This document shows, in pieces, positions 9,346 through 15,730 of a stretch of DNA of 28,826 nucleotides. Made by a program: the position numbers and the translations under genes. The stretch comes from a virus (Duplodnaviria; Caudoviricetes): the IMG/VR virus record IMGVR_UViG_3300031628_000027, positions 1 to 28,826 of that record; one strand, given 5' to 3'. Under the pieces are notes generated by a model that worked only from the letters and a program-made list of their open reading frames with translations, was not told where the DNA came from and ran no database searches. Positions within the stretch are counted from its first letter, which is position 1, and each line of letters begins with the position of its first letter.

Positions 9346-11190
9346 TTAATCTATATGTGTTTTAAAATTATCGTGAGATGCATGTCCATGAGACTGCATT
9401 TTCTCTTTGTCTACTGGCTTACCAGACATATATTTATTTAAAAATTTATGTGCGTGATGTGCCTTAACTTTATGTGTTTTTCCATCTTGGAATTTAACAC
9501 CATCATGTTTATCACCTAGACTAATAGCTTTTCTTAATTGAGCTACTATGTGGTCTGGGCCTTTATTATCTGAACCATCATGCTTAGACTTACCTGCTTT
9601 AGGTGGGTCCTTTTTAGTTGGTGCCAATCCATGTGAATCTTTGGCAATGTCTCTCATTGCGTCTTCTTTGGCGCCTTCTTGCACGTCGTTGTCAAAGTGA
9701 TTGCCTGTGCCTTGATTCAGTTCCATTGAAGGATCTGTTACTAAAGGTACATCTGATACTTGTGCAGTATGTCCGCCTCTTAATACGTCTCTAACTGTTG
9801 CGTGAACATCTCTAATAGCTTGATTAGGATTGAATGCCTTCTTAACTGCTTTCTGATGAGGTGTATCTGTATCTGTTTCTTCGCTTTCTTTCATAGCCTT
9901 TTTAATCGCTTTGTCTTTAGAACCAAAGTACTCATCTTTTTTAGTTTCTACTTTGCCGTCACCATCATGGTCTTTCTTAGCAATTTTAGATTCTGTTTTA
10001 AATGTCTTTGTACCGTCGGCTCTTTTAGTTACTTTCTTCTCAGGATATGCTAAAGTTTTTTTGCCGTGTGCGCCTTGCTTGTCCAACCAGTTTGGATCTG
10101 CTCGTTTTCTTTTTCCTTCACCGCTGTCGTCAAAGTAACCATGTCCATGGGCGTAATCTTTAAGTGCGCCTTCTTCTAATGGGTTTTCCACTTGTTCGTT
10201 AGCATGCTTGAGATGTTGTAAAACTTCTGGGTGGGATGAAAGGCCGGGCTTTATTTTATCCATTGCATTAGCTGCTCCGGTATAATTAGTGCCTCGATAT
10301 CTCTTGTCAAAGGCTATGCCTTTAGCCATTTTAATATGTTTGTCTGAGTATGTAGCTTCTTCTACATGCTTGAATAAAGATCCTTTAATAGATTCTGGAA
10401 TGTCTCTAACATTGTCTACTTTGTTGTTAGCCAATGCTCGTTCTAAATTTTCTTTATACAATTCGTTAAACGCTTCTAGTTCTTCTGAAACGCCAGCTTT
10501 TTGTTTCTCTTTTCTAAGAGCTGCTGGTAGAGCCTTTAACTTGTCTTCTTTAGATCGTTTGCCGAACTTTCTGCCAAGCCTGTTAGCTCGCTGTCTCATG
10601 CCTTCTGAATCTAAATCTGAAATAAGACCTTCTTTAATAGAAGGTTTAGAATCTTGTTTAATGGTTGGTTCGTCTATTTTAGGTTTGACTGAACCACCTT
10701 GTACTGGACGCTCATCATGCTCGCCTTCATGTTTGTCTGAAGGTCTATTAGCAGCTATTGCGTGTTCCTTTTGTGTTTGGACTTCATCGTCCTTTTGTTG
10801 ATCTCTGGCTTGCTTAGAAGAACCTTTCTTTTTAACTTTGTCGTCACGTTTAGCTTCTTCGTCGTCCTCAGAGCCATCAAAAACTTTTACATCTTCTTCG
10901 CTCATTGTAATCTCCTCGGTTTGATATTTTGTTTTTTGAGTGTGTAACCTAGCTCTATTATAAGTGACGTCGTCTCCAAATTGAAACCCCATCATTTTAT
11001 CCAATAAACTTGACAATGCTTCTCTCTCATAAGGAGCGAGAATTTTACCCATTTTAATATTAGCTAATGCTCTATGTAATATCGGTAATTGTCTAGCTGG
11101 CATCATGCCTTGTCTAATTAACTTATCCAGACGCTGTGTTTGGGTCTCAGATTCTAGTAGAATATTTAGATTATTTCTTAACTCATTCAT
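9346..11190 (-). CDS. Putative internal head polyprotein (modular, charged, likely protease-processed)
   Basis: Late promoter. K/D/E/H-rich modules are separated by xxE junctions (LLES, IKEG, VSEE, VEEA, LEEG, MKES, VQEG). Contains a DHDGDGKVE EF-hand-like module. Confidence 0.6.
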   Translation of the reverse strand: MNELRNNLNILLESETQTQRLDKLIRQGMMPARQLPILHRALANIKMGKILAPYEREALSSLLDKMMGFQFGDDVTYNRARLHTQKTKYQTEEITMSEEDVKVFDGSEDDEEAKRDDKVKKKGSSKQARDQQKDDEVQTQKEHAIAANRPSDKHEGEHDERPVQGGSVKPKIDEPTIKQDSKPSIKEGLISDLDSEGMRQRANRLGRKFGKRSKEDKLKALPAALRKEKQKAGVSEELEAFNELYKENLERALANNKVDNVRDIPESIKGSLFKHVEEATYSDKHIKMAKGIAFDKRYRGTNYTGAANAMDKIKPGLSSHPEVLQHLKHANEQVENPLEEGALKDYAHGHGYFDDSGEGKRKRADPNWLDKQGAHGKKTLAYPEKKVTKRADGTKTFKTESKIAKKDHDGDGKVETKKDEYFGSKDKAIKKAMKESEETDTDTPHQKAVKKAFNPNQAIRDVHATVRDVLRGGHTAQVSDVPLVTDPSMELNQGTGNHFDNDVQEGAKEDAMRDIAKDSHGLAPTKKDPPKAGKSKHDGSDNKGPDHIVAQLRKAISLGDKHDGVKFQDGKTHKVKAHHAHKFLNKYMSGKPVDKEKMQSHGHASHDNFKTHID

Positions 11191-11212: not shown

Positions 11213-12778
11213 CTATTGATTTAACTTTTTCTTAATATATGATTGAATGAACTCTGCAGCTAACTCTTTAGGTAGTGGCAAACTATCCTTAGGTTTGCTC
11301 ATATCTGACCACTTGTACTCTGGGTTAATTAACCAATTATGATATGAAAACGGCAATGGTGGTTCTACTTCTAAAGCAGGCCCTGGGACGTACCATTCAT
11401 GTTCTAAGTAGTTTAACATTTGATATAGATTAGTTGTAGCACTTTTCCAATTCATGAAAGACATCTCTTCTTGGAATGTACTCTCTTCTGTATTGTATAC
11501 TACTTTACCGTCTTGTTCGTCTTCTCTAAATTTTATACCTCTGTACAGATTTCCGAACCTTCCTTGAGGTCCGTCTTCCCAGAATCCATTACTAGACTCT
11601 TCCATTGTTGTCTTTTGGAATCCATACTTACCGGGGTCCATGGCAAACCTACTCTGTTCCTCATATATCCTATGTTGATCTGGAATCCATAAAGGCATTA
11701 TTTGTGATGATTGCCCTACCCAATTATTGTCTATCCATTTCTTTGTTTCCCTAAGAGTATCTAGAGTTTCGTGTGGTAGTCCTGCAATTAAACTTAAATG
11801 TGCTTGAAAGTATCCTCTACTCTCCATGTGTTCTTTATATGCTAATAGGCCGTCTTGTAGTTTGCCTGAGTGCATGCCTTTACCTACAGATTTCGCTGAG
11901 GGTGTGTTAAAAGATTCTATACCATAGAACTGAGATGTTAACCCTATGTCTTCTATCATTTGCCAATCTTTAGGTTTAGATACTAACAAGTCTCCACGAA
12001 TATAACCTGTCATATTAGGTTTGAATGGTAGCTTCTTAATAGCTCCTGCAAATCTCTCTAATTTCTCTGTGTAATCGTTGACTGTTTCATCAGATATAGA
12101 GTAATTAGTTGTACCCCATCTGTTGTAATTTTCCAACAGCTCATCGTGTAGGTTGTCCTCAGACCTGCTGTGATCGTCTTTAATGTTCCTGTATGTGAGG
12201 GTACAAAAGTGGCAGTTAAATATACAACCACGCCCAAACTCTACTGTGAGGACCTCCTGTGGCTCTATATAGTCCCTATCCTCGTAATGCGTACTTAGGT
12301 CTTTCATACGCGCTGCCATGTAGTTGTGGGTAGCGTCTACGCGCCTAAATGAGTGTCCATTTAGCCATTTATGTTCTGTATATGTGGGGTTGCCTTTAAG
12401 AATAGCATCCATAGCCAATTCACCGTACCCATGTACCATGTAATCTAGTGGTAGTCCTTCACAATTATGGAATGCTTGAGAGCCTCCGATGATTAGAATA
12501 TCTGGGTATTCCACTTTAAACCATCTGGCAAATTCAAATAGGGTTTTGAATCGTATTGAGAATGTAGCGCTAAGTCCTAAGAATTTTGTGTCCTTAGATA
12601 CTCGTTGTTTAGCAAATTGTTGTAATTGTTCTAATGTCCACGATTGAACAAAGTCCAGAACTTCAACGTCCCATCCTTGTCTCCGTAGATGTGTTGCTAT
12701 CTTATGTGCGCCGGGTGCTCGTTTGATTGAATCATAATAATAATCAACCACACCACCTAATATAATTCCGTGGTTCAT
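11213..12778 (-). CDS. Cobalamin-binding radical SAM protein (class B methyltransferase-like)
   Basis: N-terminal B12-binding-like region (GAHKIATHLR..DVEVLDF, IIGGS, HGYGE), RGCIFNCHFC (CxxxCxxC), SDETVN, YGIESF and LIAGLPHET. Confidence 0.88.
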   Translation of the reverse strand: MNHGIILGGVVDYYYDSIKRAPGAHKIATHLRRQGWDVEVLDFVQSWTLEQLQQFAKQRVSKDTKFLGLSATFSIRFKTLFEFARWFKVEYPDILIIGGSQAFHNCEGLPLDYMVHGYGELAMDAILKGNPTYTEHKWLNGHSFRRVDATHNYMAARMKDLSTHYEDRDYIEPQEVLTVEFGRGCIFNCHFCTLTYRNIKDDHSRSEDNLHDELLENYNRWGTTNYSISDETVNDYTEKLERFAGAIKKLPFKPNMTGYIRGDLLVSKPKDWQMIEDIGLTSQFYGIESFNTPSAKSVGKGMHSGKLQDGLLAYKEHMESRGYFQAHLSLIAGLPHETLDTLRETKKWIDNNWVGQSSQIMPLWIPDQHRIYEEQSRFAMDPGKYGFQKTTMEESSNGFWEDGPQGRFGNLYRGIKFREDEQDGKVVYNTEESTFQEEMSFMNWKSATTNLYQMLNYLEHEWYVPGPALEVEPPLPFSYHNWLINPEYKWSDMSKPKDSLPLPKELAAEFIQSYIKKKLNQ

Positions 12779-12783
12779 AATGT

Positions 12784-12791
12784 TATTTATG
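12784..12791 (-). promoter_or_regulatory. Variant late promoter CATAAATA
   Basis: One mismatch to TATAAATA, 5 nt before the ATG at 12778, which is the same spacing as the other late promoters. Confidence 0.6.
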
Positions 12792-12796
12792 TAGGT

Positions 12797-14173
12797 CTAG
12801 CCTACTGAATATGAGAATGCTTTATATGCCTTACTTGCCTTCTTAAGAGTCGGTCCACCTGAAGCATGGGCTGACTTAAATTTCTTAGCCTTAGGTGCTT
12901 TATATTTACCACCTGATTTAATCTTATATCGCTTTGCCTTTTGTGAAGATGCTGAACGTACTGGTTTAGCTGCTTTATACTTCTTACTATGTCCTGGACG
13001 TTTCTTACCTCTTCCTGTAAGACGTTTAATTTCATTCTTCCTCATTTGAGGTAATAGTTTAATAGATATACGACTAACTAACGGAGCAAACTTCTTAATC
13101 ATTCTTTCTAAACGAGCCTTCTCTGCAGGTGGTAAAGCACTTCTATCCCTACCCCTTAGTAGTCGTTTGTATACCATAAGCCTAGCTCCACGTGTTGCTC
13201 TCTTCTTCAGTCTGTCTGGAGTAGAACCACGTCTTAAAGCTATGTTCCTTGCAACTCTTAATTTTTGTTTGTTACGTCTAGCATTGAATCGTCTTTTTAA
13301 ACGACCTTGTACTGATAGAACTTCCGTTATGTCTATATCATTTAACGGATCGCCATCGTAGTCTTCATCTTCTAGTTCGTCATCGTCATATAAACCTAAG
13401 TCTACTGCTTTATCGAATGTAAAACTCTCTGCTTCTTTTTCTAAATCTGTTACGTCGTTGTCTTCTATATACCATTCGCCATCTTTACCTGTTAGCCAAT
13501 GATCGTCATCTCCTGTATCGAATGTTTCTAATTCGTTGTTAATAGGATACCGGTGTTTACTGTGGTCTGCTTGTTTGTCAGATATGTGGTCAAACCCTAC
13601 AAAGTTAGCAGGATCTGCGTATCTCATATTGAAGTCTTCAACATGACATGCTTCTAATACTGATTTGTAAACAGACTTCTTAGGACGCCATGTTTGTTTT
13701 TCATTCTCAGGCTTTCTAGCTTTAATTGGTAATGGCTTTAATGGTAGTGATTTTTTACCTTCACCTGGTGTTAAGGATTTGTAGTAAGCTGTTCCTTGAG
13801 GTGTTCCCCACTCATGTCCGCCTGGTGTAGGATTGTATCTAACATCTTCTGTTGTAAACCCTTCAGGTTTGCCATTAATGTATTTGCGTACGTCTTGCTT
13901 AGGCTTCTTCGCTGCCACCATAGATGCTCTGGCTGAGTCTATCATTCTCTTATCATGTTTCTTAAGAGTTTCTTTTTGTTTGGCATTTTTATCTTGCCAG
14001 TGGCCTTCTTTCTGAGTAGTTAACGCATCGTAGTCTACCTTTTTATTGAGGGAGACTTTGTAATCTTTAATCGATTTGAATTTACTTCTGTCTACTTTGA
14101 TGCCAGATTTCAATCTATCTTCAGGTTTAGGAATTTTGCCTGCCCACATGGCAGCTACATTTTCTTTCTGCAT
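12797..14173 (-). CDS. Internal head/prohead-core-like basic protein, probably the -1 frameshift extension of 14257..15717
   Basis: The frame stays open upstream to 14278 and has no late promoter or well-spaced SD before ATG 14173. It has an acidic middle and a very Arg/Lys-rich C-terminal module (EVLSVQGRLKRR...). Confidence 0.6.
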   Translation of the reverse strand: MQKENVAAMWAGKIPKPEDRLKSGIKVDRSKFKSIKDYKVSLNKKVDYDALTTQKEGHWQDKNAKQKETLKKHDKRMIDSARASMVAAKKPKQDVRKYINGKPEGFTTEDVRYNPTPGGHEWGTPQGTAYYKSLTPGEGKKSLPLKPLPIKARKPENEKQTWRPKKSVYKSVLEACHVEDFNMRYADPANFVGFDHISDKQADHSKHRYPINNELETFDTGDDDHWLTGKDGEWYIEDNDVTDLEKEAESFTFDKAVDLGLYDDDELEDEDYDGDPLNDIDITEVLSVQGRLKRRFNARRNKQKLRVARNIALRRGSTPDRLKKRATRGARLMVYKRLLRGRDRSALPPAEKARLERMIKKFAPLVSRISIKLLPQMRKNEIKRLTGRGKKRPGHSKKYKAAKPVRSASSQKAKRYKIKSGGKYKAPKAKKFKSAHASGGPTLKKASKAYKAFSYSVG

Positions 14174-14223
14174 CGAAGCGTCTTGGTGTTTCCACCAATT
14201 GTGATCGTCTTTTTTGGAGAGTG

Positions 14224-14281
14224 CCTTTAAATCCTTGTGAGCGGATTTAGGAATTTTTAATTTTTTTTTTGCGAATCCTTA
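14224..14281 (-). promoter_or_regulatory. Candidate programmed -1 frameshift/slippage cassette
   Basis: The minus strand reads TAAGGA-TTCGC-A10-TTAAAAATT-CC-TAAATCC-gctcacaa-GGATTTA-aa-GG. The 0-frame stop comes immediately after the A run, and the -1 frame stays open for 487 codons. Confidence 0.6.
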
Positions 14282-15717
14282 AGTGGGTTCTTGCCAATCT
14301 TATTTTTGCTGGCATCCACTTTAAGTCCTGTATCGTTTTCTGCTGTTTTAATAGTGTCACGTACTTTATCTAGTCCACGTCTTACCATAGCCCCTACACC
14401 TTCTTGTTGGTTTAGGTTTGTTACTAGTTGTCTCTGTGCTTCTTTAATACCGTACTCTTCAGGACGTCTTTCGTGTTGTTTCTTAATCGCTGCAGTCTTA
14501 CCTTTTTGTGAAACGTCGCCAGTTCCTTTTTGAAACTTAGCGCCTGGGTGCAGTTTATAAGTCTTCATACCACCTTTGTCGTCATCAATGCGTTTTGTTG
14601 CTTGTGGATTGTCATCTGGATGTTTAGATGCCATTCTCTTTTTAAATATCTCTTTAGATGAAGCTTCTTTAATACCTGTAGCAGCTCCACGTCCATGTTT
14701 AGCAAATACACCATGTGCTGGTTGTTTCTTTGGCGACTGCCTATTGGCTCTCATAGCTGCCATTTGTTTCTCTGGACTTAGTTTAGGCAATGTATCAGGC
14801 TCTTTCTCATCTGCCTTCATGTCTTTAGCATTGTAGCCTTCAGACCAATCTTTTCTAACATACTCTTTTCCACCAGCTCCAATGTCCGTTACTTTTGTTT
14901 TAATAGGGCTGTTGTATTTAATCTTAATCATCTTAAGACTATCTTTCTTTGTGCTGTGTACTATCGGTTTCTTAGCTTCCATTACTTTTTCGCCGGGTTC
15001 ACCGTTTACTTTAGGAGACTCAGATGGCAACCCTGCCTTCTTAAGTTTTTCCTTTGTACGTTTGTCTGAAATTTCTGGATTGTAATTGTCTCTTGAAGAC
15101 TCGTTTGCTTGTGCTCGTTTAGCTATTTTCTTTGTAGCTCTAATAACGCCTTTGGCTCTTTGGACACTTTTCATGTCTTCTTTCTCGCCTGCGTCAAAAT
15201 CATCTGAATGTGCTAATTTGTGAGCTCCTTTAGAAGCCAAATTACCTACTGATTTTTTACTTAAAGGTGATACTGATTTTCTAATATAATTAGATAGTGT
15301 TTGTGTTTTTAGCTCTGTGATATTATGTGATCCACCACAATGCTTACAAGAAGAGTCACATCCGCATGATCCTTTGTCGTCAATCTTACTATCACAACAT
15401 GAACATGTATCGCCTGCTTTTTCTTCTGTGTACTGCTTTAGGCCTGGCTTGTCTTTGTTGAATTTTGATTTGTATTCAGTTGACTGTCTTTCAGGATACT
15501 TCTTTCTTGTTTTAGGATCTTCTGCGTCAGGATGGCCTTGTGATACTGTATAAGCTATCCCTGTAGGACCTCTGCCTTTCTCTTCTTTCATCTTTATAGA
15601 TTTGAGCTCTTTAACTTCGTTGTCCTTGGCAATGTTTTTCAACAATGTGCTTGAAACAGGTTTCTTTAATGGTCGACCTGATGCTAAGTGTTCTCTTATC
15701 TCTTTAAATGTCTTCAT
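14257..15717 (-). CDS. Putative internal head polyprotein with a CTS-like N-terminus
   Basis: Starts MKTFKEIRE (compare the T4 internal-protein CTS MKTYQEFIAE). Lys-rich modules are separated by xxE sites (MKEE, YTEE, ITEL, ANES, VMEA, WSEG, IKEA twice, QQEG). Late promoter. Confidence 0.65.
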   Translation of the reverse strand: MKTFKEIREHLASGRPLKKPVSSTLLKNIAKDNEVKELKSIKMKEEKGRGPTGIAYTVSQGHPDAEDPKTRKKYPERQSTEYKSKFNKDKPGLKQYTEEKAGDTCSCCDSKIDDKGSCGCDSSCKHCGGSHNITELKTQTLSNYIRKSVSPLSKKSVGNLASKGAHKLAHSDDFDAGEKEDMKSVQRAKGVIRATKKIAKRAQANESSRDNYNPEISDKRTKEKLKKAGLPSESPKVNGEPGEKVMEAKKPIVHSTKKDSLKMIKIKYNSPIKTKVTDIGAGGKEYVRKDWSEGYNAKDMKADEKEPDTLPKLSPEKQMAAMRANRQSPKKQPAHGVFAKHGRGAATGIKEASSKEIFKKRMASKHPDDNPQATKRIDDDKGGMKTYKLHPGAKFQKGTGDVSQKGKTAAIKKQHERRPEEYGIKEAQRQLVTNLNQQEGVGAMVRRGLDKVRDTIKTAENDTGLKVDASKNKIGKNPLKDSQKKN

Positions 15718-15722
15718 ACTCT

Positions 15723-15730
15723 TATTTATA
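15723..15730 (-). promoter_or_regulatory. T4-type late promoter TATAAATA
   Basis: Exact match, 5 nt before the ATG at 15717. Confidence 0.8.

Follow-up and report, generated by a model that had tools for sequence, protein, structure and literature searches.

In an uncultured marine phage of the T4-like group, a run of ten A residues (A10) splits a late gene into two reading frames. Do the two frames represent one gene with two products and, if so, how is the frame changed at the run? The window, by which we mean the whole 28.8-kb piece of phage DNA analysed here, was surveyed by reading its translations, which identified nrdA/B, a primase, gp41, UvsX and the end of gp43. The nearest cultured match of gp41 was ~62% identical. 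Rz-like spanins, a cytidyltransferase and a DUF6267 protein are encoded upstream of the split gene. Downstream, a B12-binding radical-SAM gene (11213-12778, minus strand) lies directly behind it, and the same arrangement was found in L001-L005. A second modular, Lys-rich ORF of 614 aa (9346-11190, minus strand) has its own late promoter and no A run, and family searches with this ORF (Pfam, PHROG) gave no match.

Structure of the split junction

The elements of the split gene are as follows, all on the minus strand.
15723-15730: TATAAATA, late promoter of T4-type consensus, 5 nt before ATG 15717, without a Shine-Dalgarno (SD) sequence
14257-15717: ORF of the short product, zero frame, 486 aa, ending CAA AAA AAA AAT TAA
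14276-14281: SD-like TAAGGA, 9 nt before A_AAA_AAT; present in the window, not conserved
14261-14270: A10, the putative slip site, read directly; 9-11 A residues are kept in the gene of relatives
14257-14259: zero-frame stop TAA, one codon past A10
14228-14249: 7-bp hairpin (arms 14249-14243 and 14234-14228) in codons of the PKS...KDL module; partly conserved, not junction-specific
12797-14260: −1 frame extension, 487 aa
14171-14251: PKSAHKDL...WWKHQDASM module, 27 codons of the −1 frame before its first ATG; a conserved protein module
13013-13330: basic helical module, PHROG 23027, conserved; preceded by ITE with an invariant Glu

A sequence-only reading of the window had reported the A10 run, the stop, the open −1 frame, the SD-like hexamer and the hairpin, and direct reading located each of them at the positions it gave. 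The −1 frame is open from 14278, just past a TAA at 14281-14279, via LKIPKSAHKDLKALSKKDDHNWWKHQDAS into ORF 14173..12797. A gain of one base at A10 is computed to give a protein of 973 aa (485+1+487). Both A_AAA_AAA and A_AAA_AAT heptamers are in the zero frame at this junction, and an 81-nt fold there had a z score of −2.7, with equally stable folds in 2 of 200 shuffled sequences. The coding strand of the window contains 68 A5, 11 A6 and four A7 runs along with the single A10. As A10 is the sole coding-strand A run longer than seven, its presence is not attributable to chance.

From TATAAATA, which we take to be a T4-type late promoter motif, late expression of ORF 15717 is predicted. Since the motif lies 5 nt upstream of ATG 15717 and no SD is present, the late mRNA is likely leaderless. 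Five late ORFs on the minus strand, ORF 15717 among them, have the motif 4-5 nt upstream of their ATG (15730-15717, 11203-11190, 18514-18501, 8288-8276 and 462-449), and the SD was absent in the three of these that were checked. Judging from this layout, the five ORFs are probably expressed from leaderless late mRNAs. The close spacing of motif and ATG recurs in L050, L052, L055 and L061.

Authenticity of the A10 run

Logan contigs from sequencing runs X6 (12700-14836) and X12 (13731-15147), neither of which is flagged as a source run, bridge A10 with 0 differences and 0 gaps. The contig of X1, which may be a source run, also bridges A10 unchanged, and that of X9 spans it unchanged with fewer than 31 letters on one side. 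The choice between ten and eleven A residues, for which the sequence-only reading had proposed a check of raw reads, was thus settled in favour of ten at the level of contigs. No indel was listed at A10 in the four DNA runs; contigs drop rare variants, and a minor A11 allele may exist beneath them. The relative L062 also has A10 and is identical to the window at the junction. Because A10 is unaltered in contigs from runs that are not flagged as the source (X6, X12), an assembly error is very unlikely.

Elsewhere in the upstream ORF, strain variants with many substitutions were seen at 15190-15590, and a 133-base replacement at 14979-15113. The modules of the upstream ORF vary within the population, whereas the junction does not.

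The downstream frame is coding upstream of its first ATG

The downstream ORF 12797..14173 had been described as lacking a late promoter or SD of its own, and our examination agrees. ATG 14173 has no SD (duplex −0.7 kcal/mol) and no TATAAATA nearby, the nearest copy being that at 15730-15723, before ORF 15717. The 27 codons preceding ATG 14173 were then compared with those of L001; five codons differed, all of them synonymously. Across six additional loci, mismatches in this stretch were commonest at third positions. The PKSAHKDL...WWKHQDASM module encoded here also occurs within ORFs of other relatives. Its conservation, together with its presence inside these ORFs, indicates that the frame is coding upstream of ATG 14173. 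Constraint on the downstream frame was likewise seen in lineages that do not have it in frame with the upstream ORF. Gene calls for many of the listed homologues begin the downstream protein at an internal Met, so that databases contain truncated proteins and miss the fusion.

Runs of at least nine A residues in related genes

Three scans provided 136 related loci (5 + 51 + the best 80 of 147). L135, in which bacterial fatty-acid genes surround the match, was excluded from the run counts and later comparisons, as were the cultured-phage loci L142-L144. The 135 loci remaining after removal of L135 formed 50 clusters at 95% identity. A DNA pattern scan of viral contigs for the run plus the hairpin start returned five matches, all of them unrelated chance matches that were left uncounted. 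On the reverse strand of L008 near 4753, also an unrelated chance match, KKKKKA-stop is followed by an open shifted frame behind A9; from its sequence, this looks like a separate frameshift site, perhaps of a tail chaperone.

In the 2.1 kb before the basic module (50 cluster representatives, 95,723 bp), we counted 202 A6, 25 A7, three A8, 28 A9, eight A10 and four A11 runs. The flanks (361,634 bp) contained 502 A6, 58 A7, four A8 and one A9. The gene region (96 kb) thus has 40 runs of at least nine A residues and the flanks (362 kb) have one; A8 hardly occurs in the gene region. Outside the gene, only one of 143 lysine contexts able to form A9 actually does so.

The 38 distinct split junctions, which come from the collection of loci that includes the best 80 of 147, all require a −1 shift, and every one of them retains the run, a stop close by and the −1 relation. 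Nine A residues are present in 36 junctions and ten in two, one of which is L062. The zero-frame stop in relatives lies 3-19 codons from the start of the run. Sorted by length, the runs that coincide with the end of a long ORF and the opening of the −1 frame comprised 25 A9, one A10, three A6 and no A7 or A8; two of the A6 cases are ordinary overlapping ATG starts, and the other lies beside an A9. The nine A residues are reached in two codon phases, xAA AAA AAA AGR and GTA AAA AAA AAG. The sequence following the run differs among lineages (IPKSA, IDEVAPP, IDNDL, INIDH, IAEDARY and others), which indicates that the run is kept while the downstream modules are exchanged.

In ten loci, 16 runs of 9-11 A residues are found within a continuous ORF, beginning in all three codon phases. 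Stops in the other frames follow within 0-11 codons (−1) and 0-16 codons (+1). These alleles have the opposite default: the long ORF is in frame, and any slip leads to a stop within 0-16 codons. In L080, homologues of both window ORFs are joined in a single frame (protein P0054) with A9 at the same place; the in-frame allele of L079/L080 retains A9, the frames being joined by other means. Two in-frame runs were found in L021, L030, L107, L109, L117 and L125, and L027 has one split and one in-frame run. The short product ends IKNxSTY-stop in L026, L099, L102 and L036 (zero frame) and in L079 (−1 frame). Because an in-frame allele has this ending too, in its shifted frame, the C-terminus of the short form may be under selection.

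In the clade of the window, a run of at least nine is present in 55 of 59 untruncated rows; the tree came from a quick search with an SH-aLRT of 82 for this clade, making the grouping soft. In the four rows without such a run, an ATG is found 0-35 codons into the frame, three of them start MxSF, and L129 keeps only A8. The sequence-only reading had named independent initiation in relatives as a point against recoding. Such starts do exist, in these four, but they occur in rows that have no run of at least nine. Outside the clade, the run is absent in 22 rows (20 complete, two truncated). The cultured phages with the basic module (phiM12, HTVC008M and DLP6) also have no long A run in that gene.

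The earlier proposal of a programmed one-base switch yielding a 486-aa protein and a fusion of ~973 aa is likely to be right in view of the 38 junctions, the natural fusion in L080 (P0054) and the coding region upstream of ATG 14173. A10 is likely a genuine, strongly conserved recoding site with 486-aa and 973-aa products, and we are confident that recoding of some kind takes place there.

Polymerase slippage or ribosomal frameshifting

The conserved feature is a run length of at least nine, which fits slippage by RNA polymerase, the option that the sequence-only reading had placed second. Judging from the run lengths and phases, we consider that the two products probably arise from one gene through RNA-polymerase slippage on A10. 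Efficient slippage in vivo has been reported on nine A's or T's, with an RNA-DNA hybrid of 9-10 bp (PMC5009743). In another report, E. coli RNA polymerase showed no slippage below eight A's and inserted rather than deleted bases on A runs (PMC6260861). This threshold is that of the E. coli enzyme, from which the host polymerase here may differ. The gap between eight and nine A's, together with the various codon phases, matches these published properties of bacterial RNA polymerase, and the bias towards insertion matches the 38 of 38 junctions needing −1. Contigs of the RNA runs X15, X16, X17 and X19 are small pieces of both ORFs, and in none of the four do they extend over A10. A hairpin in the 5' nascent RNA as a stimulator of slippage was not general, z scores below −2 being found in just 12 of the 38 junctions. 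As a ribosomal heptamer needs only six to seven A's, the nine-A threshold offers a clean way to tell polymerase slippage from slippage of the ribosome.

The same two products would also result from programmed −1 ribosomal frameshifting on A_AAA_AAA, A_AAA_AAG or, in the window, A_AAA_AAT with a 3' hairpin, and both routes predict an identical junction peptide. The run by itself agrees with this route as well, since every A9 contains A_AAA_AAA. The uniform −1 direction at the 38 junctions is equally in its favour. A_AAA_AAA has been implicated in ribosomal frameshifting, and poly-A sites can serve both routes (PMC3711429). SD, heptamer and hairpin are all present together in the window, and the 50 nt after the run fold with z below −2 in 21 of 38 junctions. 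However, this dnaX/IS3-type architecture, proposed in the sequence-only reading, is less well supported across relatives. An SD-like duplex of −5 kcal/mol or better was found at only one of 38 junctions, the window's own, against a background of 13% in random 15-mers, which does not support the SD as a general stimulator. Nor is the PKS hairpin of the window a general element: it averaged −5.9 kcal/mol both at the junction and away from it (seven copies each, p 0.70), a control weakened by two of the seven non-junction copies lying only 22 and 26 nt from a run. As for the covariation expected of a functional hairpin, one compensatory, synonymous pair change was found in L001 and speaks for the ribosomal route, but the hairpin is broken in L015, L064 and L065, all of which retain the switch. 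Between the A_AAA_AAA heptamer, which relatives have as well, and the start of the window hairpin, moreover, the distance is 13 nt, which counts against ribosomal shifting because the spacing of hairpins in bacterial −1 frameshifting is 5-9 nt; a bare heptamer in six to eight A's is used at no junction. A further point for the ribosome is another hairpin, in the VAPP lineages, which lies ~15 nt from the run and is tied to the junction (−12.3 directly behind the run, n=13, against −5.3 elsewhere, n=8; p 0.001, with rows that are not independent). It counts against slippage, as 3' RNA structure is not yet made when the polymerase slips. In L077, L083, L112, L113, L118, L119, L123 and L126, an SD-like word together with an in-frame ATG falls within this hairpin, which from its position may silence an internal start rather than stimulate the ribosome. 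Taken together, we regard ribosomal frameshifting as a rather unlikely origin of the two products, and it may also act together with slippage.

Explanations that dispense with recoding were found far less probable. If the downstream ORF were an independent gene initiated from an internal ATG, the A run would merely encode lysines of a Lys-rich gene. Separate starts are indeed present in four relatives of the clade, and VAPP lineages have an SD-like word ~8 nt before an in-frame ATG (−4.7 to −8.4 kcal/mol). On the other hand, ATG 14173 has neither SD nor promoter, the protein sequence of the 27 preceding codons is conserved, lysine contexts outside the gene almost never form A9, and the run is gone from those relatives that have a start of their own. 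Two separate genes are therefore very improbable. DNA phase variation, in which replication slippage toggles A10 and A11 and only variant genomes make the long protein, would be illustrated by L096 (A10 at 1267, split) and L097 (A11 at 1543, in frame), which share their context and an identical basic module; the pair may reflect polymorphism or an assembly error. Exactly nine A's in 36 of 38 split junctions, the A9 retained by L079/L080, the lack of a listed indel in the four DNA runs (whose contigs hide rare variants) and the constraint on out-of-frame downstream sequences all oppose such toggling, which we judge highly improbable. Homopolymers are error-prone, and L096 versus L097 may be such a case. 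That the split itself is a sequencing or assembly error, or the mark of a decaying pseudogene, is nevertheless scarcely credible, with A10 identical in the contigs of X6, X12 and X1 and in L062, and the same split in 38 distinct contexts across the tree.

Predicted products and their possible role in the head

Under polymerase slippage, the reading that we prefer, the host RNA polymerase would add one extra A at A10 in a fraction of late transcripts. Unslipped mRNA would give the 486-aa protein, and slipped mRNA the 973-aa protein with the same N-terminus. Such a transcriptional slip would set a fixed ratio of short to long product. Both products may enter the prohead via their shared N-terminus and be cut there into modules, fewer copies being packaged of the very basic C-terminal one.

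Both halves of the gene encode basic, Lys-rich strings of short modules. The short product (pI 9.8) begins MKTFKEIRE and ends DSQKKN-stop. In the 487-aa extension, short modules and a WGT module are combined with a stretch of acidic character (pI 4.1) and a C-terminal part that is very basic (pI 12.0). Neither ORF matched Pfam, and the PHROG search gave only 23027 (function not assigned) and no match for the short ORF. The basic module is widespread in T4-like phages: HTVC008M has it as a stand-alone gene of 123 aa, DLP6 within its cytidyltransferase and phiM12 inside a protein of 602 aa. Virion proteomes of cyanophages frequently include cytidyltransferases, although contamination is a caveat there (PMC10665884). 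Among longer homologues of the short ORF (852-2430 aa), none of 37 matches carried the basic module, and the evidence for fusion is provided by P0054 and L080 rather than by this search. An AlphaFold model of the downstream ORF from a 28-row alignment showed isolated helices at low confidence (pLDDT 58, pTM 0.19), and ESM Atlas matches of the basic part (best 0.89) were to unnamed viral clusters and serve as a lead only.

The Glu before the basic module is invariant in 28 of 28 aligned proteins as well as in DLP6 and phiM12, and stands in an L/I-x-E-like setting. I/L-x-E protease motifs showed no overall excess (observed/expected 1.11 vs 1.09). I-R-E occupies residues 7-9 of MKTFKEIRE, though many relatives start differently; this N-terminus may resemble the capsid-targeting propeptides of T4. 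The late promoter and I-R-E at residues 7-9 would fit a packaged internal protein. Internal-head cargo, capsid targeting and control of a cargo ratio are roles that we infer from such features.

With more reserve, we put forward a wider proposal, which we consider quite possible though somewhat short of probable. The 9-11 A residues may constitute a portable, ratio-setting socket for slippage of the host RNA polymerase in the modular head-cargo gene of a clade of marine T4-like phages, behind which modules are swapped, whose polarity can flip, and of which two in one gene would generate three nested proteins. If so, a tailed dsDNA phage would employ programmed transcriptional slippage to tune the copies of each cargo module per virion, in a manner resembling alternative splicing. 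The split, fused, double-run and run-less alleles of the family provide natural controls.

Comparison with known systems

Documented recoding in phages mostly involves tail chaperones or capsid proteins and frameshifting by the ribosome. A search of the open literature found no T4-like late gene described as having a poly-A slip site.

The −1 ribosomal frameshifting of E. coli dnaX and IS3-family elements follows rules for an internal SD and spacer. The phage gene resembles these systems in the −1 direction and the A-rich heptamer and, within the window, in having an SD and a hairpin (PMC5009743, PMC4066793). It differs in that the SD is not conserved, the hairpin is not general, only a minority of cases have A_AAA_AAG in the zero frame, and the feature kept is the length of nine A's. 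The phage tail-chaperone pair G/GT and T7 gene 10 are likewise late genes with N-coterminal short and long products; those cases are ribosomal, use other motifs and involve unrelated proteins, and T4 is named as the exception to the tail-chaperone frameshift (PMC5009743).

The internal proteins IPI-III of T4 carry a capsid-targeting propeptide, and gp21 cuts after L/I-X-E (PMC9026906, PMC3012670). The split gene has in common with them a predicted late promoter, a basic, Lys-rich composition, I-R-E at residues 7-9 and the invariant Glu of ITE. Its product differs in being ~10x longer and in having no overall excess of the motif, and the resemblance noted here is one of such features.

Probably closer in mechanism is dnaX of Thermus thermophilus, where a 9-nt run causes the slippage that produces tau and gamma; other dnaX alleles consist of two ORFs and have 7-10 A's (PMC5009743, PMC3711429). 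The nine-A run is shared, as are nearby stops in both shifted frames, which are found at the 16 in-frame phage runs. Thermus dnaX, whose mRNA carries extra A's, is a host replication gene with no sequence relation to the phage gene. In tssM1 of Citrobacter rodentium (A11) and tssM3 of Yersinia pseudotuberculosis (A9), transcriptional frameshifting on a poly-A run yields short and long forms of one protein, a structural one, whose ratio matters (PMC4256274). Both polarities are known there too, one species slipping to the long form and the other to the short. These are bacterial type VI secretion genes in which slippage has been experimentally proven; the phage counterpart would be a late gene, recognized from its sequence, with shuffled downstream modules and sometimes two runs.
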